A DNA stretch of 53,468 nucleotides from an uncultured Planctomycetia bacterium (GTDB lineage Bacteria > Omnitrophota > Gorgyraeia > 1-14-0-20-64-10): positions 1 to 53,468 of the forward strand of contig CAYJQV010000007.1 of NCBI GenBank assembly GCA_964372395.1, read 5' to 3'. A program made the translations under genes and the position numbers. Under the pieces are notes generated by a model. The model did not search any database and was not told the DNA's origin. It saw nothing but the letters and a program-made list of their open reading frames with translations. This document shows positions 3,312-46,808 of the stretch, piece after piece; the first letter of the stretch is position 1; every line of letters begins with the position of its first letter.

Positions 3312-4960
3312 GTCGTGCTCGTTCGGACCCCGGCGCGAATGCGCGGGTTGAGGCGCGCAAAACCCTCCAGGTACGCCGCCCGCTCCTCCAGGAGCTGCTT
3401 GGTGAGAGATTGAATCTGGGAGGGCGTGTAATACCGGTCCAGCCGAAAGCGCTCCATCTCCACCCCGTCCACCCGGCGCGGGACCTGCGTGCCGAAGAGG
3501 GAATCCTCCTCCCACTCGATGCTCCCGCGCGCGATGCCGCGGATGATCGCCGCCATCTCCGGGATCTGCACCCGGGTGACCTTCTGCCGGACGAGGCGGG
3601 TCCCGTCGGGCTGGCGCTCGACCAGCTCGCCGACCCCGCCGGTGTTCAGGAGGTAGCAGGAGACCTTGCTGCCGTACCGCTCGAGGAACTCCAGGAACCG
3701 GTTGCCCTCCTCGGCCTCGTCTCCCACGATGAAGGGGTTGGTTCCCACGACCCGGACCGATTCCCCCGTCCGCCGCGGGTCTCCGCCGGAGGATTCGACC
3801 GATTCCCCCAGCATGAACGCAGCGGCCGCCTGCTCGAGGGTGAGCTTGGAGGCAATGGGGACCACCGTGTTGCGCCGGGTGATGAAGGCGATCACCATGC
3901 CGTCCACCTCGGACAACGGCGGCAGGTTCGGCTCGGCCGCCTTCAAGGCCCCGAAGTCGTTCCACTGCACCACCCCCCGGCCGTTGGAGGTCAATGTCTC
4001 GTCGTTGAAATCGACCTCTCCCCGGTGGTCCACCAGCACGTTTTCCAGCACGGCATCCGGCTGGGTCGCCACCCGGTAGAGGAGCGGCTGGGTCTCGGGG
4101 TCCAGGCCCTCTGTTTTCAGGTAGAAGCCCCGCTCCGTGCCCAGCGCCGAGCCGTCGGGCCGCATGAAGACGACGTCGTCCTGCACGACCCCGATTCCCT
4201 CGCCCTCCCCGTCCAGCCCGTGCCCATGGCAGGTGTGGGTGGTCTTGCCGGTCGCCGTCAGGCCGAAGAGGAGCATGGAGATCCGGCGCAGCTTCCCGGT
4301 CCGGGCATCGCGCGCCGTGATGAGCTTCGCCCCGGCGTGCACCCCGAGCATCCCCATCTTCTTGACGTTCCACATCGCCATCCGGAGATGCCCCTTCTTG
4401 GACTCTCCCAGATAGTCGGAGCCCAGGACGAGGGTGACGTTCTCCTCCGGGAAGACCAGGATCTGCCGCGCCTGCTCCGGCCATTCCGGGATGTACAGGA
4501 GGTGCTGGAAAGGGCCGCTGGCCTTTCCGCCGCCGGCGGGAAAGAGCAGGCAGCTCCACATGTAGGCGATCCGGACCATCTCCGGCCGGGCGATTGACAC
4601 CGTTGTCCGGCAGGTCGGCGTGAAATGGGGATTCTCCCCCATCCTTCTCTCCACGCAGAGCAGCGGGGCCTTCTGGATGTACCGCCGCACCGCCTCGAGC
4701 GTCTGCGGCAGCTTTCTCAGGATCTCCTCCTTCCGGGGAGAGAGCGGCCCGGTCTGAACCTCTGGCGGCCCCACCACCACCGTCGCTCCAGCGGAGCGGT
4801 TCTTCACCATCGTGTGGAAGGCGTAGTTGCCGAACTGAGTCCGGGTGCCGCAGCGTTCCCCCTCCCGGCGCAGCTCCTGGTCGCTCAGGCGGCGGACGTT
4901 CGGCTGGCGATAGAGCGCCTCAATCGCCGGCAGGATGGAGGGGGTGGAACTCACGCCCAT
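3296..4960 (-). CDS. pckA: phosphoenolpyruvate carboxykinase (ATP)-like
   Basis: 554 aa. Kinase-1a-like LLFGLTATGKTT, then QDDVVFMRPDG..ERGFYLKTEGL and YLLNTGGVGE, which resemble ATP-PEPCK motifs. The sequence is divergent. Confidence 0.6.
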   Translation of the reverse strand: MGVSSTPSILPAIEALYRQPNVRRLSDQELRREGERCGTRTQFGNYAFHTMVKNRSAGATVVVGPPEVQTGPLSPRKEEILRKLPQTLEAVRRYIQKAPLLCVERRMGENPHFTPTCRTTVSIARPEMVRIAYMWSCLLFPAGGGKASGPFQHLLYIPEWPEQARQILVFPEENVTLVLGSDYLGESKKGHLRMAMWNVKKMGMLGVHAGAKLITARDARTGKLRRISMLLFGLTATGKTTHTCHGHGLDGEGEGIGVVQDDVVFMRPDGSALGTERGFYLKTEGLDPETQPLLYRVATQPDAVLENVLVDHRGEVDFNDETLTSNGRGVVQWNDFGALKAAEPNLPPLSEVDGMVIAFITRRNTVVPIASKLTLEQAAAAFMLGESVESSGGDPRRTGESVRVVGTNPFIVGDEAEEGNRFLEFLERYGSKVSCYLLNTGGVGELVERQPDGTRLVRQKVTRVQIPEMAAIIRGIARGSIEWEEDSLFGTQVPRRVDGVEMERFRLDRYYTPSQIQSLTKQLLEERAAYLEGFARLNPRIRAGVRTSTTCLPA

Positions 4961-9601: not shown

Positions 9602-10966
9602 ATGGACCGATTAAACCTGAACCTCTGGAATCAAGCCCTCAGTCACATTCAGGGGCAGCTCCCCACTCAAGCCTATGAGACGTGGTTTCAGCCCACCCGG
9701 GCCGTCGAGTCCACCACCGGCTCGCTCGTGGTGGAGGTCCCCAACCCCTTCTTCCGCGACTGGCTGACCACCCACTACACCGACCTCATCCACGAGACCC
9801 TGCAGCACCTGGCCCGCACCAAGGTGGAGGTCCAGTACACCCTGCCGCAGCAGGCGCCCGAGGAGCCGCCTGCGCTCGCGGCCGCTTCCGCATCCCCTGC
9901 TCCTGCACCCGCAGCCCCTGCCTGGCCCGCACCGGTCCCTGAGCCGGTTCTGAACTTCCGCTACACCTTTGAGCAGTTCGTCATCGGCCCTTCCAATCGG
10001 TTCGCCCATGCGGCCTCGGTGGCGGTGAGTGAAACCCCCGCCAAGGTGTACAACCCCCTCTTCATCCACGGGGGCGTCGGTCTGGGAAAGACGCACCTCA
10101 TGCAGGCGATCGGGCACCGGATCCGGGAGCGTTTCCCCCAGGCCCGCGGCATCTACCTCTCCAGCGAGCGGTTCACCAATCAGCTCATCTCCGCGATCCA
10201 AAACCGCTCGATGGCCGCCTTCCGCGAGCGGTTCCGCTCGGCCGACATCCTCCTGGTGGACGACATCCAATTCATCGCAGGAAAAGAGGCCACGCAGGAG
10301 GGGTTCTTCCACACCTTCAACGCCCTCTATGACTCCCACAAGCAGATCGTGATCTCCAGCGACCGTCCCCCCAAGGAGCTTCACGGGGTGGAGGAGCGGC
10401 TCGTCTCCCGGTTCGAATGGGGACTGGTCGTGGACATCCAGCCGCCGGACCTGGAAACGCGGGTGGCCATCCTGAGGAAGAAAGCGGAGGCGCAGGCAAC
10501 TCCCGTTCCCGATGAGGTCACCCTCTTTATTGCGGAGCGCGTCAGCTCCAACATCCGCGAGCTGGAAGGGGCGCTTAACCGGGTTATTGCCTACGGCGTA
10601 TTGACCGGCCGGCAGATGTCTCTCTCCATGGCACAGGAGGTTTTAAAGGGCTTGGTGGCGGAGGTCGCCAGGAATGTGACGGTGGAACGGATCCAGCGTT
10701 TCGTTGCCGGCTATTTCAACATCACCCTGGCAGAGCTAAAGGGTAAGCGGCGGACAAAGGCCCTTTCGTTGCCGCGCCAGCTGGCCATGGCGATGGCCCG
10801 CGAGCTGACGGATGCCTCTTTGCCCTCCATTGGGGAGGCGTTCGGTGGAAGGGATCATGCAACCGTTGTATACGCCTGTCAAAAGATCGCGCGGGTTCGG
10901 TCACAACCGGGCAAGCTGAAGGAGCTCTTTGAGTCGTTGCAGGCGGCATTCCTGCGGGAGGGATAG
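9602..10966 (+). CDS. dnaA: chromosomal replication initiator DnaA
   Basis: NPLFIHGGVGLGKTHLMQAIGH, LLVDDIQF, SDRPP and the C-terminal DNA-binding LPRQLAMAMARELT..SLPSIGEAFGGRDHATV. Confidence 0.97.
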   Translation: MDRLNLNLWNQALSHIQGQLPTQAYETWFQPTRAVESTTGSLVVEVPNPFFRDWLTTHYTDLIHETLQHLARTKVEVQYTLPQQAPEEPPALAAASASPAPAPAAPAWPAPVPEPVLNFRYTFEQFVIGPSNRFAHAASVAVSETPAKVYNPLFIHGGVGLGKTHLMQAIGHRIRERFPQARGIYLSSERFTNQLISAIQNRSMAAFRERFRSADILLVDDIQFIAGKEATQEGFFHTFNALYDSHKQIVISSDRPPKELHGVEERLVSRFEWGLVVDIQPPDLETRVAILRKKAEAQATPVPDEVTLFIAERVSSNIRELEGALNRVIAYGVLTGRQMSLSMAQEVLKGLVAEVARNVTVERIQRFVAGYFNITLAELKGKRRTKALSLPRQLAMAMARELTDASLPSIGEAFGGRDHATVVYACQKIARVRSQPGKLKELFESLQAAFLREG

Positions 10967-11158
10967 CCTGTGGAGAAAGCTGTTGGTTACTCTGTTGAGG
11001 GGTCGTTATGTTGATGGGTGGGTGGTTTTCAACAATTTCCAAACAATTCCTGTTGAATCTTATCTCTATTGTTGTATTATAGTTATAGCGTTTTTCGTGG
11101 ACTTGACAGCCCTTACTGTTGTTATTGATTCTCCATAAACTAAAGTAAAGGTAGGGCC
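10967..11158. other. candidate oriC / DNA-unwinding region in the dnaA-dnaN spacer
   Basis: The only strongly AT-rich tract in the window (11041-11100 has 18 G+C of 60). DnaA-box-like 9-mers: TGTGGAGAA (10969-10977), TTCTCCATA (11129-11137, opposite orientation) and TTTTCAACA (11026-11034). TGTTG recurs six times. Confidence 0.5.
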
Positions 11159-12256
11159 ATGAAAGCTCGCATTTCCAGGGAGAATCTCTTCAAGGCAGTT
11201 CAGAGGGTTTACCCTGTTGTTCCTTCCAAGAGCACGTTGCCGATCCTGTCCCACCTCCTCTTGGAGGCCAAGAAGGAGAGCCTGCAGGTCACCGGTACCG
11301 ATCTGGAGCTGGGCATCACAACCGCGGTTTCAGCAGAGGTCGCGGAAGAGGGATCCATCGCTGTTCCGGCGAAACGGTTCCACGATCTGGTCAAGGAGCT
11401 GCCTGAGGAATCGCTGCAGATGACCTGCAGGAAGAATCAGCAGATCGGAATCGAATGCGCCCGCGGGGTGTTCAAGATCGTCGGCCTTCCAAAGGAAGAG
11501 TTTCCCCGCCTCCCCAGCACGGCAAGCCAGGATACCCTGACGATCGATCAGGGGGTCCTCCAGGCAATGCTGGCACTGACCCTCTTCTCCGTTTCCCATG
11601 ACGAATCCCGCTACATGCTGACCGGAGTCCTCTTCGCCACACAGAATGGCTGGCTTCGGCTTGTCTCCACGGATGGACGCCGGATGGCGATGGTGGAGCG
11701 AGAGGCGAGGGCAAGCGGGGTCAAGGATCAGCAGCTCATCGTCCCGCAAAAAACATTGCAGGAGCTGCTGCGCCTCCTGGGGGAGGGGCCCACCGTGAAG
11801 ATCTCGCTCAAGGAGACACAGATCACCTTTGACCTGGGAAACACACTCGTCATCAGCCGGTTGATCGAGGGCAAGTTCCCGAACTACGAGCAGGTGATCC
11901 CGGCGGAAAGCCCCAATAAGATGTCGGTGAACCGGGAGGACTTTCTGGTCGCAGCTCGAAGGATCTCCCTCTGGTCGACCCAGGATTCGCCGTCCGTGCG
12001 ACTGGATCTTAAACCGGACCAGCTAGTGGTCTCCAAGCAAAGCCCGGAAGTCGGGGAGGCGCATGAGGACGTTCGAGTCAGCTACGCAGGACCGGAGTTT
12101 TCCATTGGATTCAACCCCGCCTATCTCATCGACGTGTTGAAGGCCCTCCCCGACGGGAGCGTGGAGATGGAGCTGCCCGGACCGGACCGGCCGGGCGTCA
12201 TCCGGACAAAGGACCACTACCTGTACATCGTCCTGCCGATGCAGTTAAGCCAGTAG
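11159..12256 (+). CDS. dnaN: DNA polymerase III beta sliding clamp
   Basis: 365 aa following dnaA. LPILSHLLLEA, TGTDLEL, RYMLTGVLF and LVSTDGRRMA motifs. Confidence 0.95.
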   Translation: MKARISRENLFKAVQRVYPVVPSKSTLPILSHLLLEAKKESLQVTGTDLELGITTAVSAEVAEEGSIAVPAKRFHDLVKELPEESLQMTCRKNQQIGIECARGVFKIVGLPKEEFPRLPSTASQDTLTIDQGVLQAMLALTLFSVSHDESRYMLTGVLFATQNGWLRLVSTDGRRMAMVEREARASGVKDQQLIVPQKTLQELLRLLGEGPTVKISLKETQITFDLGNTLVISRLIEGKFPNYEQVIPAESPNKMSVNREDFLVAARRISLWSTQDSPSVRLDLKPDQLVVSKQSPEVGEAHEDVRVSYAGPEFSIGFNPAYLIDVLKALPDGSVEMELPGPDRPGVIRTKDHYLYIVLPMQLSQ

Positions 12257-33982: not shown

Positions 33983-33996
33983 TTACTGCCAGGAAG

Positions 33997-34693
<697 letters not shown>

Positions 34694-35673: not shown

Positions 35674-36980
35674 AGGGCTCCTCGCTCCTGATCCGGGGAG
35701 GCCGTCTGGTGGATCCGGCCCAGGGGCTGGACGAGACGGCCGATCTTCTCATCCAAGAGGGCAAGGTGGCCCGGGTCGGCAGGAATCTGAAGGCGGAAGC
35801 CGCCCAGATCATCGAGGCCCGGGGCAAGGTGGTCGTCCCCGGCTTCATCGACCTGCACGTCCACCTGCGCTCTCCGGGGCAGGAGCACAAGGAGACGCTG
35901 GCCACCGGATTCCAGGCCGCGCTGCGCGGAGGATTCACCACCGTCTGCACGATGGCCAACACCGAGCCCGTAGTGGACACCCCGGCGGTCGTCGAGTACC
36001 TCAAGGGGGAGAGTGCCAGGGTGGGGCTGGTGAACCTCCTGCCCTTTGCGGCGGTCACGATGGGATTGAAGGGGGAGGTGCTCACCGAGATGGGGGCGCT
36101 CGAGAAGGCGGGTGCGGTGGGATTCTCGGATGACGGGATGCCGATCGCCAGCGCCGGCGTCCTGCGCCGTGCGCTGGAGTACAGCCGGATGACGGGGCGG
36201 CCGGTCATCGATCACTGCGAGGACAAAAGCTTGAGCGCCCACGGGGTTGCCCACGAAGGGGTGACCTCCCTGCGGCTGGGGTTGGCCGGGATCCCCGCGG
36301 AGGCGGAGACGGTCATGCTGGCGAGGGATCTGTTGCTTGCGGAGGCCACGGGCGGCCGGCTGCACGTGGCCCACGTGAGCACGGCGGCCGGCGTGGAGCT
36401 CATCCGGGCGGCGAAGAAAAAGGGAGTGGCCGTCACGGCGGAGGTGACCCCGCATCATCTCGTGCTCACGGAGGAGGCGCTCAACACCTACGACGCGCGG
36501 TTCAAGATGAATCCCCCCTTGAGGAGCCAGACGGACATGGCGGCGCTCCGCCAGGGGCTGAAGGAGGGCACCCTCGATGCGGTGGCAACGGATCATGCCC
36601 CGCACGCGCATGCGGAGAAGGAGACGGGATTGGTCCAGGCGCCCTTCGGGGTGATTGGGCTGGAAACGGCGCTGCCGGTTCTGCTCACGGAGCTGGTGGG
36701 ATCGGGGGCGCTCACGTTTCCAGAGCTCATCGTGGCCCTGACCTGCCGGCCTGCGAAGGTCCTGGGGCTGGACCGGGGCACGCTGAAAGCCGGCGCGCCG
36801 GCGGACGTGACGATCCTGGATCCGGAGGCCGAGTGGGTCATTGATCCGGCGGCCTTTTCCTCGAAGAGCCAGAACAGCCCTTTCCTCGGCTGGAGGGTGA
36901 AGGGGCGAGTGACCGATGTCGTGAGGGATGGGGTGGTGAAGTATCGGCAGGGGCAGTTCCTGAACGGAGCGGCCGGATGA
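35670..36980 (+). CDS. pyrC: dihydroorotase
   Basis: PGFIDLHVHLRSPG, HVAHVST and ATDHAPH motifs. Confidence 0.92.
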   Translation: MKGSSLLIRGGRLVDPAQGLDETADLLIQEGKVARVGRNLKAEAAQIIEARGKVVVPGFIDLHVHLRSPGQEHKETLATGFQAALRGGFTTVCTMANTEPVVDTPAVVEYLKGESARVGLVNLLPFAAVTMGLKGEVLTEMGALEKAGAVGFSDDGMPIASAGVLRRALEYSRMTGRPVIDHCEDKSLSAHGVAHEGVTSLRLGLAGIPAEAETVMLARDLLLAEATGGRLHVAHVSTAAGVELIRAAKKKGVAVTAEVTPHHLVLTEEALNTYDARFKMNPPLRSQTDMAALRQGLKEGTLDAVATDHAPHAHAEKETGLVQAPFGVIGLETALPVLLTELVGSGALTFPELIVALTCRPAKVLGLDRGTLKAGAPADVTILDPEAEWVIDPAAFSSKSQNSPFLGWRVKGRVTDVVRDGVVKYRQGQFLNGAAG

Positions 36981-37726
36981 ATCGCGCAATCCCGCTCTTC
37001 TTGGCGGGGGCGATCGGGCTGGCGGGACGGGCCGCGTTCGCCGAGGAGGGGCCGGCGCTCTCCAAGAAGGAGCCGGCACCTCTGGTGGAACAGGAGCCGG
37101 CGCTCCCGAAGGAGGCGCTGGAGATCGGGCGAAAGGCCTCGAGCTGGAAGAGCTACCGGGCCGAGTTCGCCCTGGAGGCGAAGGAGGAGGGCGGAGGGCT
37201 GTTCAAACTGCGAGGGGTCCTTCTCTTCAAGCAGCCGAACCTCAGGCGCCTGGAGATCTGGGAAGGGGACAGCGTGGAGCCGACGCAGATCCTGGTTTCC
37301 GACGGGAAGGTGGAGTGGCAGTACCATCCGCAGAACGCGGTGGTGTACCGGCTTGCAGAGCCGGTGGCCCCCCCGGGCCCCCATCGGCCGTTTGGCGAGG
37401 CCATGCCGGGAACGGTCCGGTTCATCGAGCGGGTGGGCGAGGCCGGGCAGGGCCGGCTGCGGTTTGAAGCGGAGCCGATCCCCGCCGCGGTGGAGGCATA
37501 CGCCTCCGCGATCCAGAAGCTCCGGATCGAGGTGTCTGAGCAGGATGGGCTGGCGAGGGATCTCCTCCTGCTGGATCCGGACGGGAATACGGTGCTCACC
37601 CAGCGCTTCACGAAGGTGGAGGTCAATGTCCCAACGGACGCGAACGGTTTTTCCTTTGTCCCGACGGAAGGGGTGGCGGTGATTGATGTGCCCCGGCCTG
37701 AGCCGGTCGGGGCCAAGGAGCCGTAG
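36977..37726 (+). CDS. LolA-like / outer-membrane lipoprotein-sorting family periplasmic protein
   Basis: Signal peptide MNRAIPLFLAGAIGLAGRAAFA, and the pattern FKQPNLRRLEI....ILVSDGKVEWQYHPQNAVVYR. ATGA overlap with pyrC. Confidence 0.45.
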   Translation: MNRAIPLFLAGAIGLAGRAAFAEEGPALSKKEPAPLVEQEPALPKEALEIGRKASSWKSYRAEFALEAKEEGGGLFKLRGVLLFKQPNLRRLEIWEGDSVEPTQILVSDGKVEWQYHPQNAVVYRLAEPVAPPGPHRPFGEAMPGTVRFIERVGEAGQGRLRFEAEPIPAAVEAYASAIQKLRIEVSEQDGLARDLLLLDPDGNTVLTQRFTKVEVNVPTDANGFSFVPTEGVAVIDVPRPEPVGAKEP

Positions 37727-37737
37727 GTCTCATTCAA

Positions 37738-38073
37738 ATGAAGGAGGTGGCGCGCATGCGTTCGACTTGGAAGACGTGGGCAAGCCTGCTTGGGTTGGTG
37801 CTCTTCGCGACGGGGGCGTCGGTCGAGGGGGTCCAGGAGGCCCGGCGTTGGCAGCACAATGGCGATATCCCCACCGCGCTGGGGCAGTGGGACGCGGCTT
37901 ATGTCTACTACCGCAGGACCGCGGAGCTCTTCCCGGATACCGCACGGGGCAGGTACGCCGCCTCACGCTCCCGGCGGATGCGCAGCATCCTGCTCCGGCC
38001 GGAGCGTGGGCCGGGGGAGGAGAGCGGCGCCGCGTGGGTGGGGGAGTTCATCGATTTCCTGACCTGGCCTTAG
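37738..38073 (+). CDS. hypothetical small secreted protein
   Basis: Hydrophobic N-terminus WASLLGLVLFATGASVEG. No recognisable family. Confidence 0.35.
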   Translation: MKEVARMRSTWKTWASLLGLVLFATGASVEGVQEARRWQHNGDIPTALGQWDAAYVYYRRTAELFPDTARGRYAASRSRRMRSILLRPERGPGEESGAAWVGEFIDFLTWP

Positions 38074-38088
38074 ATCGGAAGGGGGCGG

Positions 38089-38544
38089 GTGCGGTTTCTC
38101 GTCACACCGGAGCTGGGCCGACTGGCCCGGTGGCTGCGGCTCCTCGGATACGACACAGCGTATGCGCCGCTGGGCCAGCCGTGGCGCGAGGTCCTCATCC
38201 AGGCGATGCAGGAGCAGCGGCTGCTGGTCGCGCGGGACGGACGGTACCGGGGCGGACGGGGCGTGCAGGTCGTGAGGATCGCCAGCGACCGCCTGAGGGA
38301 CCAGCTCAGGGAGTTCCTGGCGGCGCTGGAGGCCGCTCCAGAGGAAGGGGCGATCTTCAGCCGGTGCCTGCGCTGCAATGAGCCGCTGGAGGAGATGCGG
38401 AGGGAATCGGTGGCTGCAAGGGTTCCCCCCTACGTTCTTCGGACGGCCAAGGAGTTCGTGCGCTGTGCGCGGTGCGATCGGATCTACTGGCCGGGGACGC
38501 ACCTGGATCTGGCAGAGGCATTCTTGAGAGAGGTTTCGGGATGA
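38089..38544 (+). CDS. Mut7-C RNase domain (DUF82, PIN-like) protein
   Basis: FLVTPELGRLARWLRLLGYDT, LLVARD and the C-terminal zinc ribbon CLRCN...CARCDRIYWPGTH. Confidence 0.7.
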   Translation: MRFLVTPELGRLARWLRLLGYDTAYAPLGQPWREVLIQAMQEQRLLVARDGRYRGGRGVQVVRIASDRLRDQLREFLAALEAAPEEGAIFSRCLRCNEPLEEMRRESVAARVPPYVLRTAKEFVRCARCDRIYWPGTHLDLAEAFLREVSG

Positions 38545-39779
38545 AGATCGTTGCCGATTTCCACCTGCATTCCAAGTACAGCCGGGCGACAAGCAGCCGG
38601 CTGGACCTGGACCTTCTGGCGCAGTGGGCCAGGTACAAGGGGATCCAGCTCCTGGGGACGGGCGACTCGACGCACCCCCTGTGGATGCAGGAGCTCAAGT
38701 CCAAGCTCAAGCCGGCCTCCGGTGGGCTATACGAATACAACGGGGTCTGGTTCCTTCCGACCGCGGAGGTGAACACCCTGTTCCTCTCGGGTGCGAAGAG
38801 CCACCGGATCCACATCCTGCTCTTCTTCCCGAGTCTCGAGGTGGCGCAGGCGCTGAACCAGAAGCTGGCCCGGTACGGGGATCTGAACAGCGACGGCAGG
38901 CCCTCCCTGCGGCTCTCCGCCCGGGATCTGACGAGGATGGCGCTCGACACCTCGCCGAAAATCCTGGTCGTGCCTGCGCATGCCTGGACGCCCCATTTCA
39001 GCGTGTTCGGGGCCAACTCCGGATTCGACACGGTGGAGGAATGCTTCGGGGATCAGGCGAGCCAGATCCATTGCCTGGAGACCGGCCTCTCCAGCGACCC
39101 GGCCATGAACTGGCGTCTGAGTCGGCTGGACCGCTACACGCTCATCTCCAACTCCGACTCCCACGCGGCCCAGCGGATCGGCCGCGAGGCGAATGTCTTT
39201 GACTGCGAGCCAGGCTACGACCCGATCGCCTCAATCCTCCGGACCAAGGATGCCCGGCGATTCCTCTACACCATCGAGTTCTTCCCGGAAGAGGGGAAAT
39301 ACCACTACGACGGCCACCGGCTCTGCAAGGTGCGCGTTTCACCCGAGGAGGCGGCCCGGCAGGGCAACCGCTGCCCGGCCTGCGGGAGGAAGGTGACGGT
39401 GGGGGTGATGCATCGGGTCGCCGAGCTGGCCGACCGGCCGGAGGATTACCGTCCCGCGCAGGAGATCCCCTTCAGGCATCTGGTCCCGCTGGACCAGATC
39501 ATCGCCGAGGCGCGCGGGGTGGGGGTGGGGACCAAATCGGTCGAGCAGGAGTACCTGGATCTGGTGCAGCGGGTCGGGACAGAGCTGGAGATCCTGCTGG
39601 AGCTGCCGGAGGAGGCCCTGCGCAAGCAGCTGTCGCCCCGGCTCCTCGACGGGATCCTGCGGGTGCGCAGGTCCCAGGTGGAGATCCTGCCGGGATACGA
39701 CGGGGAGTATGGAGAGGTGAAGATCTTCAAGGAGGGACAGGAGTCGGCTGGGGAGAAGCAGCTGACCCTGTTCGAGTAG
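38541..39779 (+). CDS. endonuclease Q-like PHP-domain protein (TIGR00375 family)
   Basis: MKIVADFHLHSKYSRATS..LGTGDSTHPLW, VPAHAWTPHFSVFG, SNSDSH and zinc finger CPACGRKVTVGVMHRV. ATGA overlap with the Mut7-C gene. Confidence 0.7.
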   Translation: MKIVADFHLHSKYSRATSSRLDLDLLAQWARYKGIQLLGTGDSTHPLWMQELKSKLKPASGGLYEYNGVWFLPTAEVNTLFLSGAKSHRIHILLFFPSLEVAQALNQKLARYGDLNSDGRPSLRLSARDLTRMALDTSPKILVVPAHAWTPHFSVFGANSGFDTVEECFGDQASQIHCLETGLSSDPAMNWRLSRLDRYTLISNSDSHAAQRIGREANVFDCEPGYDPIASILRTKDARRFLYTIEFFPEEGKYHYDGHRLCKVRVSPEEAARQGNRCPACGRKVTVGVMHRVAELADRPEDYRPAQEIPFRHLVPLDQIIAEARGVGVGTKSVEQEYLDLVQRVGTELEILLELPEEALRKQLSPRLLDGILRVRRSQVEILPGYDGEYGEVKIFKEGQESAGEKQLTLFE

Positions 39780-39785
39780 GCGGCG

Positions 39786-40907
39786 ATGAAGGCCCTCTTG
39801 GCTTTAGAGGACGGCACCGTCTTCCACGGGGAGTCGTTTGGGGCTGCCGGTGAGGTGGCGGGGGAGGTGATCTTCAACACCTCCATGACCGGCTATCAGG
39901 AGATCCTGACCGATCCCTCGTACAAGGGGCAGATCGTGACGATGACCTACCCTCTGATCGGCAACTACGGGGTGAACAAGAGCGATGTGGAGTCGGCAAA
40001 GCCCCAGGTGGAGGGATTCGTCATCCGGGCGCTCAGCCCGGTCGCCTCCAGCTGGCGCAAGGAGGCGACGCTGGAGGAATGGCTGAAGGCGCACGGCACG
40101 GTGGCCATCCAGGGGGTGGATACGCGGGCCCTGACGGTTCTGCTGCGCGAGAAAGGGGCCCTGAAGGGAATCCTCTCGACGGCGGACCTGGATCCCGCGC
40201 GGCTGGTGAAAAAGGCGAAGGAGTCGCCCGGGCTGCTGGGGCGGGACCTGGTGAAGGAGGTGACGTGCGGCGAGATCCATGCGTGGAGTGAGGAAATCCC
40301 AAAGGGGTCTGACCCCAAAAGCCATTCCGGGGTCAGACCCCATGTGGCGGCGGTGGACTGCGGGATGAAGGCCCACATCCCCCGGATGCTGACCCAGGCC
40401 GGGTGCCAGGTGACCGTGGTCCCCGCGACGGCGACCGCCCGCGAGATCCTGGAGATGAAGCCGGACGGGCTGTTCCTCTCCAACGGGCCCGGCGATCCGG
40501 AAGGGATGCCCTATCTCGTCTCCGCGGTCCGGGACTGTGTGGGCCGGCTGCCGATCTTCGGGATCTGCCTGGGGCACCAGATCCTGGGGCTGGCCCTGGG
40601 AGGCAAGACGTACAAGCTCAAGTTCGGTCACCACGGAGCAAACCATCCGGTCATGGATCTGGCGACCGGCCGCGTCGAGATCACCGCGCAGAACCATGGC
40701 TTCTCGGTGGATCCCGATTCGATCCCGGGGGGAGCGGTGGAGGTTACCCATCGGAACCTGAACGACAAGACCTGCGAGGGGATGCGCCACCGGGAGCAAC
40801 CGGTCTTCTCGGTCCAGTACCATCCGGAGGCCTCCCCCGGCCCGCATGATTCCCGGCATCTCTTCAGGAGATTCGTCCGGATGATGGAGACGGGGGTGGC
40901 GCCATGA
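39786..40907 (+). CDS. carA: carbamoyl-phosphate synthase small (glutaminase) subunit
   Basis: [28 protein letters not shown] and HHGANHPV motifs. Carries palindromic element E1 in the inter-domain linker. Confidence 0.95.
40304..40341 (+). repeat. palindromic element E1, in frame in carA
   Basis: GGGGTCTGACCCC-aaaagccattcc-GGGGTCAGACCCC, translated [13 protein letters not shown]. Confidence 0.9.
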
Positions 40908-41569
40908 AGAGACTGTTGTTGGCGGGAGCGGGGCTCGTCCTGGCGCTGGCGATTTTCCTGATCTGGAGCAGGGCGATCCACCACGAGAATTCGCTTCCGC
41001 CGGAATCGCCCCCGGCTCCCGCCGAGCCAGCCGGTCCGGTCCCCGTGCCGGTGGTTTCACCGGAGGAGCAGCCGGCACGCGAGACAACCCCGCCCCGGCC
41101 CACGGCACCGGTCCAGGTCCGTTTCGAGGCGCCGGCGTCAGCGCCGTTCGGGCAGGGCACCCCGGTGGTCCTCGTGGTTGAAAGCGACCCGAAGGCCTGG
41201 CCGGAGAGCGTGGAGGGGGAGGTCACGCTGGAGCTTCTCCTGCGGCTGCCGGTGGGGGTCCGGCTGGAGTCCGACGGCTGGGCCGGCGTGGAGCTGCCGG
41301 CAGAGGAGAAGGATGATCGGAGCGGACCGTGGTCCCTCTTCGAGCGGAAGATCTCCGTTCGGATCCCGGCGGGGGAGATCCCGCTGGTCGTGGCCCGGGA
41401 GGCCATCTCGCTGGCCGTCATCGAACAGGGGACCAACTGGATCATGACCGTCCGCGCCCGTCTGGTGAGCGGCTCCGAGGCCTGGCAGAGTTTCGGCGTC
41501 CTCTTCGCCACCGTCCAAGCAGGTCAAGCAGAGTTCCACACGGTTCCCCGCCCCACAGGGAATGCCTAA
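40904..41569 (+). CDS. hypothetical membrane-anchored Pro-rich protein between carA and carB
   Basis: N-terminal [20 protein letters not shown], then a [19 protein letters not shown] linker. ATGA overlap with carA and an 8-nt overlap with carB. Confidence 0.5.
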
Positions 41570-44500
41570 GAGAACCGACCTCAAGAAGATCCTGATCATC
41601 GGATCCGGCCCCATCATCATCTCCCAGGCCTGCGAGTTCGATTACTCCGGGACCCAGGCCTGCAAGGCCCTGCGCGAGGAGGGCTACTCGGTGGTTCTGG
41701 TCAACTCCAATCCCGCCACCATCATGACCGATCCGGAGTTTGCCGATCGGACCTACGTGGAGCCGGTGACCGCGGAGGCGGTGGAGAAGGTGATCCTTCG
41801 GGAGAAGCCGGATGCGCTCCTGCCCACGCTGGGTGGGCAGACCGGCCTCAACGTGGCGATGCAGCTCGCCCAGTCCGGCGTGCTGGAGCGCTGCGGGGTT
41901 GAGATGATCGGGGCGAACGCGCAGGCGATTGCCAAGGCGGAGGACCGGGAGCTGTTCAAGCAGACCGTGCTGGCGCACGGGCTGGACGTTCCCCGCAGCG
42001 GGGTGGCGCACAGCCTCGATGAGGCGCGCCGGGTCGCCGAGGAGATCGGCTTCCCGGTCGTGGTGCGGCCCGCCTTCACGCTGGGAGGGACCGGCGGAGG
42101 GGTGGCGTACAACTGGGAGGAGTTCCAGAGGACCGCGGAGATGGGCCTGAGCCTGAGCATGGTCTCCGAGATCCTCATCGAGGAGTCGGTGGAGGGGTGG
42201 AAGGAGTTTGAGTTGGAGGTGATGCGGGACCGGAAGGACAACGTCGTGATCGTCTGCTCGATCGAGAACCTGGACCCCATGGGAATCCACACGGGGGATT
42301 CGATCACGGTCGCCCCGACCCAGACCCTGACCGACAAGGAACTCCAGGCGATGCGCAGCGACGCCATCACCGTGATCCGCGCCATCGGCGTGGAGACGGG
42401 GGGATCGAACATCCAGTTCGCCGTCCATCCGGAGACGGGCCGGCGGGTGGTGATCGAGATGAACCCGCGCGTCTCCCGGTCGTCCGCGCTGGCCTCGAAG
42501 GCCACGGGCTTCCCGATCGCCAAGATCGCGGCGAAGCTGGCGGTCGGCTACACGCTGGACGAGATCCCCAACGACATCACGAAGAAGACCCCGGCCTGCT
42601 TCGAGCCGACGCTGGACTACTGCGTGGTGAAGATCCCCCGATGGGCGTTTGAGAAGTTTCCGGCCGCGGATCCCACGCTCACCATCCAGATGAAGTCCGT
42701 CGGGGAGGCGATGGCGATCGGCCGGACCTTCAAGGAGGCGCTGCAGAAGGGCCTCCGGTCCCTGGAGATCGGGCGGGCGGGGTTGGGAGCCGATGGGAAG
42801 GACGCCCCCGCCCCCGATCTGGACGAGCTCAGGAGGAAGCTCCACACCCCCAACGCCGACCGGATCTTCGCCCTGCGGCTGGCCATGCAGGCGGGGATGT
42901 CCAACGAGGAGATCCATCGGCTCACCCGGATCGATCCCTGGTTCCTGCAGGAGATCCGCCAGATCGTCGATCTGGAGCAGGAGCTAAAGGGGTCAGACCC
43001 CTTCAAAAGGGGTCTGACCCCAACACGTTTTGACCCGGGGCTGCTCCTCAAGGCGAAGCAGTACGGCTTCAGCGACAGGCAGCTTTCCTTTCTCTGGGGC
43101 AAGCCGGAGCTTCAGATCCGGAAGTGGCGGTTCGGGCTGGGCGTGCGGCCGCGCTTTTATCCCGTGGACACCTGCGCTGCGGAGTTCGAGGCGTACACGC
43201 CTTACTACTACTCCACGTATGAGCGTGTTCCGGAAAACCTAGCGGGGTCTGACCCCTTCGGCTCCACCCCATCTTTAAGAGAGGGTCAGACCCCAGCAGG
43301 GGTTAAGAAGGTGATGATCCTGGGCGGCGGCCCCAACCGGATCGGGCAGGGGATCGAGTTTGACTACTGCTGTGTCCGGGCGGCCTTTGCCCTCCGGGAG
43401 GCCGGCTGCCGGACGATCATGGTCAACTCCAACCCGGAGACCGTCTCCACCGACTACGACACCTCCGACGTCCTGTACTTTGAGCCGCTGACCTTCGAGG
43501 ATGTGCTGAACATCGTGGACGAGGAGAGGCCGGACGGGGTGATCATCCAGCTCGGCGGGCAGACGCCGCTCAACCTCGCGCTGGCGCTGGATCAGGCTGG
43601 CGTTCGGATCCTGGGGACCTCCTCGGAGGCGGTGGATCGGGCGGAGGACCGCAAGAAGTTCAGCCAGCTCATCGAGAAGCTGGGCCTGAAGCAGCCGCCC
43701 AACGGGACCGCCCACGAGGGCGGCGAGGCGCTTGCCATCGCCCGGCGGCTCACCTTCCCGGTTCTGGTGCGGCCCTCCTATGTGCTGGGGGGGCGGGCCA
43801 TGGAGATCGTCTACGACGAGGAGGGGCTCGCCTTTTACATGGCGCATGCGGTCCAGGCCTCCCCGGAGCATCCGGTGCTGGTGGACAAATTTCTGGAGGA
43901 TGCGATCGAGGTGGACGTGGATCTGGTGGCGGACGGCCAGGAGGCGCTGATCGGAGGGATCCTCGAGCACGTGGAGGAGGCCGGGGTTCACTCGGGGGAC
44001 GCGGCGATGGTCCTGCCTGCGCACACCCTGCCGGCGGCCGTGCTGGATCAGATCCGGGATGCGAGCCGGCGCCTCGCGCGGGAGCTCCAGGTGCGCGGGC
44101 TCATGAACATCCAGTTTGCCGTCAAGGACGGCCAGGTGTACGTGCTGGAGGTAAACCCCCGCGCCTCCCGGACGGTCCCCTTTGTCTCGAAGGCCGTCGC
44201 GGTTCCCCTCGTGAAGCTCGCGACCCTGGTGATGACCGGCTCTCGCCTCCGGGAGTTGGGCTTTACGCAGGAGGTTCGCCTGCCGTTTACGGCGGTCAAG
44301 GAGTCGGTCTTCCCCTTCGCCCGGTTCTTCGGGGTGGACATCATCCTGGGGCCGGAGATGCGCTCCACCGGCGAGGTGATGGGGATCGACACCACTTTCG
44401 GGATGGCCTTTGCCAAGTCGCAGATGGCGACCTATCAGAAGGTGCCGCTGGAGGGAACGGTCTTCCTGAGCGTCAAGGACCGGGACAAGCCGGCGGCTCT

Positions 44501-44909
44501 GGGGATTGCGCGCCGGCTGGTTCAGCTGGGATTCCAGATCGTCTCGACGCGCGGGACGGCGGCCGCCCTGCGCCAGCACGGGGTGCAGGCGGGGGAGGTC
44601 AAGAAGATCTACGAAGGCCGGCCGGATGTCCTGGATTTCCTGCGCGATTCGAAGGTGGACCTCATCATCAACACCCCGGCGGGGAAGGCGACCAAGGAAG
44701 ACGAGACCAAGATCCGCTCCCTGGCCGTGTCGCGGGGGATCCCCTGTGTGACCACCATCCCGGGCGCCCAGGCCCTGGTCACGGGGATCGACGCCCTCAA
44801 GAACCAGGGGTACGGCGTCTGCTCCCTCCAGGAATGGCATGAGCGGATCCGGGCGGGGCAGAGCTCCGGCTCCAGCAGGAGCGGGCCGGTCGCGGTGGCC
44901 AGGAGCTGA
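41562..44909 (+). CDS. carB: carbamoyl-phosphate synthase large subunit
   Basis: [25 protein letters not shown], and a second half [22 protein letters not shown]. 1115 aa. Carries elements E2 and E3. Confidence 0.97.
42989..43021 (+). repeat. palindromic element E2, in frame in carB
   Basis: GGGGTCAGACCCC-ttcaaaa-GGGGTCTGACCCC, translated [12 protein letters not shown]. Confidence 0.9.
43244..43294 (+). repeat. palindromic element E3, in frame in carB (linker between the two synthetase halves)
   Basis: GGGGTCTGACCCC-25 nt-AGGGTCAGACCCC, translated [18 protein letters not shown]. Confidence 0.85.
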
Positions 44910-44917
44910 GGACCCGC

Positions 44918-45820
44918 GTGAAGCCGCTGCCGCGCGGGATGGTGCAGGAACGGGCGCACGTCCTTCTCCACCGGAGGATCGCGGCGGACCACCATCTGCT
45001 CAGAATCCACTCCCCCCGGGCCGCGCGGCGGGCCGAGCCGGGGCAGTTCATCCACATCCTCTGCGGGGAGAGTGGACCGGGCACAGCGGGCCGGGGACAG
45101 TCCCCCTCGGGTACAGCCCCCTTTTTGAGGAGGCCCCTCTCGCTGTTTGATGCCGATCCGGTTCGGGGGTTCATCGAGGTGATCTACAAGGTGGTCGGAT
45201 TGGGAACGGCCTCCCTGGCGCGGGTTCCGGTCGGCGCACGGGTCGATTTCCTCGGGCCCCTGGGAAGGCCCTTCCTCCCCCCCGAAGGAGGAGAGACGCT
45301 TTTCCTCGTGGGGGGAGGGGTCGGGATTCCTCCGCTGTACTTTCTGGCTAAAAAGCTGAAGGGGTCTGATCCCTTGAAAAGGGGTCAGACCCCCGTTGGG
45401 CTCGAGGTCTTTCTGGGGGCGCGGACCAGGGGCTGGGTGATCTGCGCCTCCGCCTTCTCGCGGCTCGGGATTCGGGTCGGCGTGGCGACCGATGACGGCT
45501 CGTGGGGGTGGCGCGGCAGCGTGGTGGATCTCCTTCGCAGGCGCCTGCGGGCGAGGGGACGCAACGGTAGTGTGGCCCTCTGCGTCTGCGGGCCCACCCC
45601 CATGATGGCTGCGGCGGCGGCGCTGGCCAGGCAGGCGCGCATGCCGGCGCAGGTATCGCTGGAGGAGCGCATGGGCTGCGCCATGGGCTGCTGCATGGGA
45701 TGCGTGGTGGAGATGGCGACCCAGCCCAAAAACAGCCACGCCCGGTTCCAGCGGGTCTGCACGGAGGGCCCTGTGTTCGATGCGCGGGAGATTCTCTGGA
45801 GAAACCCTCGTGGGGTCTGA
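44918..45820 (+). CDS. pyrK: dihydroorotate dehydrogenase electron-transfer subunit
   Basis: GTG start. FAD/NAD-binding fold and the 2Fe-2S motif GCAMGCCMGCVV. The stop TGA lies in the centre of the first arm of E5. Carries E4. Confidence 0.88.
   Translation: MKPLPRGMVQERAHVLLHRRIAADHHLLRIHSPRAARRAEPGQFIHILCGESGPGTAGRGQSPSGTAPFLRRPLSLFDADPVRGFIEVIYKVVGLGTASLARVPVGARVDFLGPLGRPFLPPEGGETLFLVGGGVGIPPLYFLAKKLKGSDPLKRGQTPVGLEVFLGARTRGWVICASAFSRLGIRVGVATDDGSWGWRGSVVDLLRRRLRARGRNGSVALCVCGPTPMMAAAAALARQARMPAQVSLEERMGCAMGCCMGCVVEMATQPKNSHARFQRVCTEGPVFDAREILWRNPRGV
45361..45393 (+). repeat. palindromic element E4, in frame in pyrK
   Basis: GGGGTCTGATCCC-ttgaaaa-GGGGTCAGACCCC, translated K-GSDP-LKR-GQTP. 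Confidence 0.9.
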
Positions 45821-46808
45821 CCCCAAAAGGCCTTTAGGGGTCAGACCCCGTCAGGTTGATCTTTCAGTCCACCTGGGGAGGTTCCGGCTCCAGAACCCTA
45901 TCCTCGTCGCCTCCGGCACGTTCGGTTACGGAGAGGAGTACCATCGGCTCTACGACGTCAACATCCTGGGCGGGATCGTCACCAAGTCGATTTCCTTAAA
46001 GCCCCGGCCGGGCAACCCCGCCCCGCGCATCTACGAGACCCCTTCGGGGATGATCAACTCGATCGGCCTGCAGAATGTGGGGCTGGCAGCGTTCCTGAAG
46101 GAGAAGCTTTCCTTCCTCCGGCGGCTCAAGGGCCCGCGGGTCATCGTGAATCTGATCGGGGAGCGGGCATCGGAGTATGCGGAGCTGGCGCGCCGGCTGG
46201 AGGAGGCGGCCGGTGTGGATGCCCTGGAGCTCAACCTCTCCTGCCCGAACTGCGAGCGGGGCGGGATGGAGTTCGGCGTGGACCCGAAACTCACGGCGGA
46301 GGTGGTGGCCCGCGTGCGGAAGGTGACCCGCAAGATGCTGATCGCCAAGCTTTCGCCCAACGTGACCGACATGGTGCCGGTTGCGCGGGCAGCGGCAGAG
46401 GCCGGCGCCGACGCCCTGTCGCTCATCAACACGATCCTCGCGGTGGCGGTGGATCCGAACAGCTGGCGGCCCCGGATCGCCACGGTGACCGGCGGATTGA
46501 GCGGGCCGGCGGTGAAGCCGATCGCCCTTCGCATGGTCTGGCAGATCCACCGCGCGATTCCCCAGGTGCCGCTCATCGGAATCGGTGGTATCATGACCGC
46601 CGAGGACGTTGTGGAGTTCATGCTCTGCGGGGCCAGCGCCGTGCAGCTCGGCACAGTCAACTACGTCCATCCCAAGGCCCCGGTGGAGATCCTGGGGGCC
46701 TTAAGACGCTACCTTCAGAGGAAGAAGCTCTCCGGCCCGGCTGGGCTGGTCGGGAAGCTCAAGGCACCGCAGCGCTTGAGGGGCGTGCCGGCGGTGGTGG
46801 CGGGGTGA
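45810..46808 (+). CDS. pyrD: dihydroorotate dehydrogenase B catalytic subunit (start GTG 45810 preferred; ATG 45780 alternative)
   Basis: LQNPILVASGTFGYG, NSIGLQN and LNLSCPN motifs. GGAGA (45798-45802) lies 7 nt before GTG 45810. Confidence 0.9.
   Translation: MGSDPKRPLGVRPRQVDLSVHLGRFRLQNPILVASGTFGYGEEYHRLYDVNILGGIVTKSISLKPRPGNPAPRIYETPSGMINSIGLQNVGLAAFLKEKLSFLRRLKGPRVIVNLIGERASEYAELARRLEEAAGVDALELNLSCPNCERGGMEFGVDPKLTAEVVARVRKVTRKMLIAKLSPNVTDMVPVARAAAEAGADALSLINTILAVAVDPNSWRPRIATVTGGLSGPAVKPIALRMVWQIHRAIPQVPLIGIGGIMTAEDVVEFMLCGASAVQLGTVNYVHPKAPVEILGALRRYLQRKKLSGPAGLVGKLKAPQRLRGVPAVVAG
45812..45849 (+). repeat. palindromic element E5 at the pyrK/pyrD junction
   Basis: GGGGTCTGACCCC-aaaaggccttta-GGGGTCAGACCCC. 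Read as ..GV-stop in the pyrK frame and as GSDPKRPLGVRP in the pyrD frame. Confidence 0.9.

Follow-up and report, generated by a model that had tools for sequence, protein, structure and literature searches.

Here we describe a short GC-rich palindrome, termed E5, at the junction of pyrK and pyrD, the genes for the electron-transfer and catalytic subunits of dihydroorotate dehydrogenase B (DHOD-B), in an uncultured Omnitrophota bacterium (assembly GCA_964372395.1, contig CAYJQV010000007.1, positions 1 to 53,468; this whole stretch of 53,468 nt is called the window, and coordinates refer to it). We consider it likely that E5 is a copy of a short, non-autonomous family resembling the repetitive extragenic palindromes (REPs) and that it replaced the ancestral overlap of the pyrK stop with the pyrD start after the split from a closely related sister strain. 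Junctions that carry a member of this family are referred to as filled (the window and lineages L126, L223, L224, and L136), and the sister strain's junction is referred to as the empty allele. The junction as it is now built comprises the following features.

44918 to 45820, + strand: pyrK, DHOD-B electron-transfer subunit, whose last six codons (RNPRGV) come from the inserted cassette.
45798 to 45801, + strand: GGAG resembling a Shine-Dalgarno sequence, carried on the left flank of the cassette and 8 nt ahead of the pyrD start (GGAGA ends 7 nt before the GTG).
45798 to 45857, + strand: full cassette of the E5 subfamily, GGAGAAACCCTCGT + core + GTCAGGTT, about 56 to 60 nt, whose outer 2 to 3 nt at each end are microhomology with native sequence.
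45810 to 45812, + strand: GTG assigned here as the pyrD start, corresponding by homology to the ATG in the other filled alleles and the empty one.
45810 to 46808, + strand: pyrD, DHOD-B catalytic subunit, whose residues 2 to 14 (GSDPKRPLGVRPR) are translated palindrome.
45812 to 45849, no strand: E5 core, a 13-nt arm GGGGTCTGACCCC, a 12-nt loop AAAAGGCCTTTA, and a 13-nt arm GGGGTCAGACCCC.
45818 to 45820, + strand: pyrK stop TGA, at the center of the left arm of E5, in the frame CGT GGG GTC TGA.
45857 to 45859, + strand: ancestral pyrK stop TGA, still in the pyrK frame, 39 nt past the new stop and now inside the pyrD codons GTT GAT.

The E5 core is a near-perfect palindrome of 38 nt (37 of 38 positions are symmetric) with arms at 45812 to 45824 and 45837 to 45849; arms and loop together make a 19-nt/19-nt inverted repeat that is 95% complementary. 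It is no chance feature, because, with at most one mismatch allowed, the window has 10 sites (five pairs) for the 13-mer arm where 0.34 are expected, and none of 100 shuffled windows reaches 10, and because the RNA fold of the 66-nt region around it (-36.7 kcal/mol) has a z score of -4.5. On its own, the core folds at -28.7 kcal/mol, with a stem that starts at the third base of the pyrD start codon. The five arm pairs, E1 to E5, are the strongest palindromes of the window. A scan of the + strand for terminators found no U-tract hairpin terminator at E5, the tail of which is GTCAGGTTGATC. Rfam has no model for the family, and a scan of the operon against Rfam (E <= 1) returned nothing credible on E1 to E5 and no match to the PyrR site (RF00515), only a chance match of E4 to a plastid RNA (E, 0.09). 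A literature search with a 12-mer of the arm returned an unrelated human-genetics paper as its sole match.

The sister strain, represented by four independent assemblies (L122 to L125), offers a natural before-and-after comparison for this junction: its operon DNA is 93 to 95% identical to that of the window, and its PyrD is 97% identical. It has none of the five copies, and its junction, CTCTGGAAGTCAACCAATGGGCATTGATCTTTCAGTC (CTCTGGAAGTCAACCAATGGGCATTGATC), is unfilled, with pyrK ending in ...ILWKSTNGH-stop and pyrD beginning MGIDLSV at an ATG, the two genes overlapping by 11 nt (ATGGGCATTGA). Relative to this allele, about 16 native nucleotides (AGTCAACCAATGGGCA) have been replaced by AGAAACCCTCGT, the palindrome, and GTCAGG, for a net gain of 39 nt. 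The joins show microhomology of only 2 to 3 nt, GGA on the left (after a conserved Trp codon) and TT on the right (before GAT), and the filled/empty comparison shows no target-site duplication. A reading in which the insertion took place after the native TGA and duplicated TGA was considered and rejected, since the left flank is likewise unlike native sequence and is found again at a second locus. Where the window has GGAG, the empty allele has GGAAG.

The exchange altered both proteins. The tail of PyrK changes from KSTNGH to RNPRGV, with the TGA of the element pre-empting the ancestral one, and PyrD gains 13 residues, GSDPKRPLGVRPR, at its N terminus. The overlap is again 11 nt (45810 to 45820, GTGGGGTCTGA), as in L122, L126, and L224 (L223 is also ATG aligned with an 11-nt overlap), and it was thus present both before and after insertion; across relatives, the junction is always tight (-11 to +18 nt). 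An initial annotation, made from the letters of the window, had proposed that E5 supplies the pyrK stop codon, that the whole element is translated as the PyrD N terminus, and that the element can remodel gene termini. All coordinates that it gave hold, the 13 extra residues relative to the sister strain bear out the second proposal, and the third extends to five lineages. Readthrough of the UGA-C stop was rejected as a further possibility; it would add only 12 residues before the old TGA, and there is no sign of its use. As a separate observation, PyrK of the window (44918 to 45820) is only 80% identical to that of L122, a large gap in constraint from the 97% of PyrD, the other subunit of the same enzyme.

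From sequence comparison, we place the start of pyrD at GTG 45810, because this codon aligns with the ATG that relatives have (in the empty allele as well as in L126, L223, and L224, which are filled), because the public gene call also starts there, and because the ATG at 45780 is not conserved. From the GTG, the frame reads V/M-GSDPKRPLGVRPRQVDLSV (GTG GGG TCT GAC CCC ...) and is open across the entire element. The initial annotation had listed both GTG 45810 and ATG 45780 as usable starts; only the former stands, as codon 45780 to 45782 (+ strand) is GAC in L122 and L126. It is very unlikely that pyrD starts at ATG 45780 or, alternatively, at a non-canonical codon past the element, with the palindrome forming an untranslated leader. 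That ATG is in frame and opens the longest pyrD open reading frame (ORF), pyrD of L136 does begin past its element (at TTG), and a survey of REPs (PMC3733652) cautions that many N-terminal REPs are really extragenic. Set against this, besides the GAC codons, are the ATG that occupies precisely this position (45810) in the empty allele and in three further filled alleles, the GGAG 8 nt upstream, and the codons past the element (CGT CAG GTT GAT CTT TCA GTC), which, as the initial annotation had claimed, provide no in-frame ATG, GTG, or TTG between 45849 and the conserved PyrD core (DLSV/LQNP).

Among 120 PyrD homologues, the usual N terminus is M-[AGP]-[VI]-D-L-S-V, and the modal distance from the N terminus to LQNP is 13 residues, compared with 26 in the window; the peptide encoded by the element is present in only 1 of the 120 besides the window. 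Alignments to solved DHOD-B structures and to the NCBIfam profile begin only at V26/L28 of the long pyrD ORF. An AlphaFold model of PyrD (built with 36 homologues) has a pLDDT of 48 at residues 1 to 10 and no secondary structure in residues 1 to 19, and the 13-residue extension is accordingly modeled as what would be a tolerated, disordered tail. A HMMER search with the 30-residue PyrD N terminus against 1.8 billion representatives returned two chance matches only, and a protein search with a 40-residue concatenate of the element peptide returned no candidates; neither search amounts to a census of translated copies.

The junction is filled in five lineages, and the nearest relatives of each are unfilled. 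Because these nearer relatives have ordinary junctions, the distribution calls for repeated gains or repeated lateral micro-transfers rather than for one old insertion; PyrK of the other filled lineages is only 54 to 60% identical to that of the window. The inner flanks of the cassette are identical in L126, L223, and L224, lie at the same nucleotide position, and differ from the native sequence of the sister strain. The L126 junction reads ...GGAGAAACCCCAATGGGG...GTCAGGTTGATC with a loop of 6 nt. Two lineages have lost the center of the palindrome, L223 (GGGGTCTGACCCC-A-TCAGACCCC; PyrD begins MGSDPIRPRPVDLSV) and L224 (GGGGTCTGACCCC-AGACCCC; PyrD begins MGSDPRPRRVDLSV), and stems of 7 to 9 bp persist in them. 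These center-deleted alleles accord with the classical fate of a palindrome and speak against strong selection for the full stem. In the fifth lineage, L136, the family is arranged differently: its copy has the arm order A..T and is located between the stop (TGA) of pyrK and the start (TTG) of pyrD. Taken on the compared sequences, the pyrK/pyrD junction is an insertion hot spot in Omnitrophota.

In L136 (7344 to 7395), the pyrK stop overlaps an ATG (TGATG) that opens an 11-codon ORF, MGSDPFQAKRV-stop, running through the hairpin; the right-arm TGA closes this mini-ORF, leaving 5 nt to the pyrD TTG, and the arrangement could act as a termination-reinitiation relay.

Another locus in the metagenome, with a depth matching the source genome's, has a further copy of the E5 type, with the flanks GACGGAGAAACCCCA/TGGGG...GTCAGGTT/TTCGCC (its context was read for 30 nt on each side). 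Because the same flanks recur at this second locus, GGAGAAACCC... and ...GTCAGGTT are parts of the element, not of pyrK/pyrD. The surroundings of this copy also read as a C-terminal ...HGV-stop and an N-terminal MGSDP...GVRPRQVFAWF, as if it too sat on a gene junction. Among eight aligned copies, six have a GGAAAACC-like left flank, and the right flank is AGG(TT). We raise, as a tentative possibility that we hold to be more doubtful than not, that the E5 subfamily is a self-contained stop/Shine-Dalgarno/start cassette (GGAG-N8-ATGGGGTCTGA plus a palindrome open in the other frames) that enters operon junctions while sparing both genes and their coupling, and that template switching guided by microhomology, with no transposase involved, has brought it to pyrK/pyrD of Omnitrophota repeatedly.

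The core common to the whole family consists of two 13-nt arms, GGGGTCWGACCCC, each itself a palindrome, around a loop of 6 to 25 nt; in the E5 subfamily, this core is bordered by the flanks GGAGAAACCCnnnT and GTCAGGTT. The remaining copies in the window, to none of which a strand is assigned, are as follows.

40304 to 40341: E1, in frame in the inter-domain linker of carA, encoding a 14-residue peptide.
42989 to 43021: E2, arm order A..T, in frame in the oligomerization domain of carB, encoding a 12-residue peptide.
43244 to 43294: E3, loop length 25 nt, read in frame in the linker of carB that precedes the second synthetase half, encoding an 18-residue peptide.
45361 to 45393: E4, in frame in a surface loop of pyrK, encoding the peptide KGSDPLKRGQTP.

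E1 to E4 map to short variable segments, linkers, or loops of the Escherichia coli or Lactococcus lactis structures (1CS0, 1BXR, and 1EP3). At the E2 and E4 sites, the coding sequence of the sister strain is ordinary and of another length; its E1 and E3 sites hold other, unrelated palindromes, and at the E3 linker of further relatives there are palindromic families different again. These are thus fast-turnover, tolerant positions, because sister strain and relatives have different or unrelated sequence there. Outside the pyr genes, the family is present in another Omnitrophota metagenome-assembled genome (MAG), both in an FtsA-like protein, within the linker that precedes its C-terminal helix, and in a spacer between genes (L024), and the source metagenomes hold further copies on contigs at the depth of the source genome. 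Among the genes called in the 72 kb of the genome read, no REP-associated tyrosine transposase (RAYT/Y1_Tnp) family was present.

Unrelated translated palindromes at the linkers of CarB (E3) and CarA (E1) were noted at L122:3513-3595, L123 and L137 (about 4850 to 4900), L133:4865-4914, L134:1645-1709, and L122:569-607; the linker peptides of relatives (VIAS/VIARSE..KQS..EIAS, VRPELVEG.., and PQGAGPAGAG) represent at least three repeat families at the same Omnitrophota linkers. Exact pairs of the 13-mer GGGGTCWGACCCC, 5 to 30 nt apart, occur in more than 120 stretches (genome contigs, L001 to L120, and viral contigs, L207 to L215) and span many phyla, including Proteobacteria, Actinomycetota, Acidobacteriota, Planctomycetota, and Firmicutes; they are both inverted and direct and often have AACC/GGTT or A-run/T-run outer stems. 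The viral part of this set is nine stretches of six viral contigs, one of them a giant-virus MAG, where three other GC-rich palindromic pairs used as a control gave 0, 0, and 4 stretches, a contrast too weak to call the 13-mer special. The arm may be a widespread REP module.

The effect of the hairpin on initiation was estimated as opening energy, the computed cost of making positions -18 to +13 around a start codon single stranded. Opening the pyrD start costs 26.6 kcal/mol in the window, 29.5 in L126, and 25.0 in L136, compared with 12.2 in the empty allele, so that the hairpin adds about 14 kcal/mol. On these values, tighter coupling of pyrK and pyrD, or occlusion of the start by the hairpin, is plausible, as the initial annotation had suggested from the layout. 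The ancestral junction already had this 11-nt overlap, so that the element preserved the layout for coupling, perhaps tightening it, and did not originate it.

A sequence of events consistent with these data would run as follows. After the sister-strain split, the cassette would have replaced the roughly 16 nt of the overlapping junction through the 2 to 3 nt of microhomology on each side, leaving pyrK to end at the TGA of the left arm and pyrD to start at GTG 45810, in the place of the old ATG, behind the GGAG that the cassette brought with it. Translation of pyrD would then run through the whole palindrome, adding 13 residues while retaining the 11-nt overlap. The hairpin would block, or largely exclude, free 30S subunits; a ribosome terminating at 45818 to 45820 would have unwound the left arm and could re-initiate 8 nt upstream, and PyrD output would track PyrK output. 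The element itself may be selfish or neutral DNA that survives here since its stop, Shine-Dalgarno sequence, and start fall in the right registers, and its spread may have relied on template switching or on short-patch ectopic conversion, not on a cut-and-paste transposase.

Several points weigh against this account. The proposed mechanism of mobility derives from a handful of junctions. All five copies lie within 5.55 kb (carA to pyrD), with none in the other ~67 kb of the 72 kb of contig read, an odd cluster for a randomly inserting selfish element (by rough arithmetic, uniform placement has a probability of ~2e-4), so that a role specific to pyr, or else strongly local spread, must be allowed for; distance-dependent spread via template switching would explain it, with a pyr-specific function as the less likely alternative. 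The same cassette borders in four lineages could mean lateral transfer of the allele and not repeated insertion. Finally, other starts in the operon are also costly to open (11.7 to 24.8 kcal/mol; pyrF, 24.8; carA, 21.7), and the effect of the hairpin may be less special than it appears because starts in this GC-rich operon cost much in general.

The cluster also favors regarding the hairpins as regulatory devices, RNA or DNA, that are under selection in the pyr operon (setting PyrK:PyrD stoichiometry or serving as processing, stability, or protein-binding sites) and not as selfish insertions: five of five copies in the 72 kb fall inside carA to pyrD, L136 has the family at the same carA site as well as at the same junction, some hairpin beside the pyrD start is kept in all five filled junctions, even the center-deleted ones, and the L136 mini-ORF resembles a coupling relay. 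We nevertheless judge this explanation unlikely. None of the five copies exists in the sister strain, where their places are taken by ordinary or different sequence, the loops vary freely in length (6 to 25 nt) and in sequence, and four of the copies lie in coding loops where other relatives have unrelated palindromes. Moreover, the family occurs outside pyr (the FtsA-like linker, the intergenic site of the other Omnitrophota MAG, and other loci of the same metagenome), and the elements have neither an Rfam match nor, at E5, a U-tract terminator, the only PyrR-type site lying upstream of pyrR. That the filled junction is ancestral in the clade, with deletions having removed it from the sister strain and many others, is highly improbable: the cassette borders common to four lineages and the internal deletions in two of those, which demonstrate that decay occurs, would fit, but loss would have had to restore W[RK]-stop/ATG or NGH-stop/MGID junctions precisely in dozens of lineages, the filled lineages have unfilled nearest neighbors (e.g., with 97%, 92%, and 95% PyrD identity), and the near-perfect symmetry of the window's palindrome (37/38) fits a recent origin. 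An assembly or chimera artifact of the MAG has a practically negligible probability. Repeats and hairpins do break assemblies, and the contigs of two low-depth runs end at the element; however, contigs of ~1.9 kb from four independent runs span E5 with zero differences at 21- to 135-fold depth, and independent assemblies of other studies have the same architecture.

One low-depth contig of run X5 (about 10-fold, with a shorter side of 33 nt) joins 45778 to 45909, skipping 130 nt; across this join, codon 287 of pyrK would continue in frame into codon 34 of pyrD, and the contig may represent a chimeric unitig or a divergent relative.

Insertion of a REP-like palindrome, our preferred explanation for E5, has precedents in known systems. 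The survey of Di Nocera et al. (2013; PMC3733652) describes REPs inside known genes in several phyla, where REP dimers encode 20 to 30 residues. It also reports that the end of a REP can furnish the stop codon of an adjoining ORF, that N-terminal coding regions hold many REPs, and that bacteria of the PVC (Planctomycetes-Verrucomicrobia-Chlamydiae) group, e.g., Opitutus and Planctomycetes, have REPs. Like REPs, the E5 family is a short GC-rich palindrome, present in multiple dispersed copies (five in the window and more in the metagenome and in other Omnitrophota), with a core of 33 to 51 nt, compared with 20 to 40 bp for REPs. Unlike them, it has no GTAG tag in the eight aligned copies and has CGTC only as CCC-CGTC-AGG 3' of E5-subfamily copies, not of E1 to E4; its stem is 13 bp and not the 8 to 9 bp of CGTC REP families (PMC3733652), its arms are each self-palindromic, and its loops are highly variable. 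REPs are also predominantly extragenic, whereas four of the five copies in the window are inside coding sequences and one is on a gene junction, with intergenic copies elsewhere (L024).

The Rickettsia palindromic elements (RPEs) of Ogata et al. (2000, 2002), as summarized in PMC10969869, are the classic in-frame palindromes, translated and compatible with protein folds, and also decorate N termini. The E5 family resembles the RPEs of that summary as palindromic, probably selfish DNA placed in frame in unrelated housekeeping genes at tolerant positions (E1 to E4 in linkers and loops and E5 in a tail predicted to be disordered). It is set apart from the RPEs so described, which are about 100 to 150 bp long, make up the sequence families RPE-1 to RPE-10, and are restricted to Rickettsia, by its length (33 to 60 nt) and its host, Candidatus Omnitrophota; E5 further differs from that description in having replaced native sequence and in sitting on an overlapping stop/start junction, to which it gives stop, Shine-Dalgarno sequence, and start together. 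[quoted passage not shown] Finally, the junction resembles those of translationally coupled overlapping genes (of the ATGA type or longer) in that the pyrD start lies within a few nucleotides of the pyrK stop, with an 11-nt overlap, and differs from them in that the overlap sequence comes from a mobile palindrome with a ~-29 kcal/mol stem that starts inside the start codon. Overall, the E5 family works like known REPs and RPEs and is not a new kind of system, because intragenic, stop-supplying, and N-terminal REPs have already been described.

E5 offers a clean natural example of probably selfish DNA reshaping the ends of genes. Its filled and empty forms make a rare matched pair of natural alleles, 93 to 95% identical, in which a palindrome sits on the overlapping stop and start of two subunits of one enzyme, and the pair is usable for measuring how a ~-29 kcal/mol stem starting in the start codon affects coupling. 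More broadly, uncultured Omnitrophota have several translated palindromic repeat families that turn over quickly at protein linkers. Such translated repeats matter for gene calling (start codons and spurious N-terminal extensions), for protein alignments, and for phylogenies built from MAGs.

The window corresponds to part of contig CAMTXW010000019.1 in the MAG GCA_947085785.1, and its pyr proteins have their closest relatives in Candidatus Omnitrophota. By profile searches, the order of genes around the junction is carA (39786 to 40907), an ORF of unknown function, carB (41562 to 44909), pyrK (44918 to 45820), pyrD (to 46808), pyrF, and pyrE. The ORF between carA and carB (40904 to 41569; 221 residues) has no family match, is conserved in relatives, and overlaps both neighbors. 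Between pyrC and carA (36977 to 39779) lie two ORFs of unknown function (249 and 105 residues), a protein with a Mut7-C RNase domain, and an MJ0043_C/TIGR00375-like protein. Directly upstream of a pyrR-like gene (about 34106 to 34693) that heads pyrB-pyrC, positions 33993 to 34101 (+ strand) match the Rfam PyrR binding site over its full length below threshold (46.8 bits, with a gathering score of 54; E, 6.6e-4); to judge from this match and its position, the segment is probably the real pyrimidine-responsive leader of the operon. Elsewhere in the window are dnaA and dnaN (9602 to 12256), with rnpA, yidC, parA, and parB just upstream (L222), which places the replication origin ~30 kb from the pyr operon.

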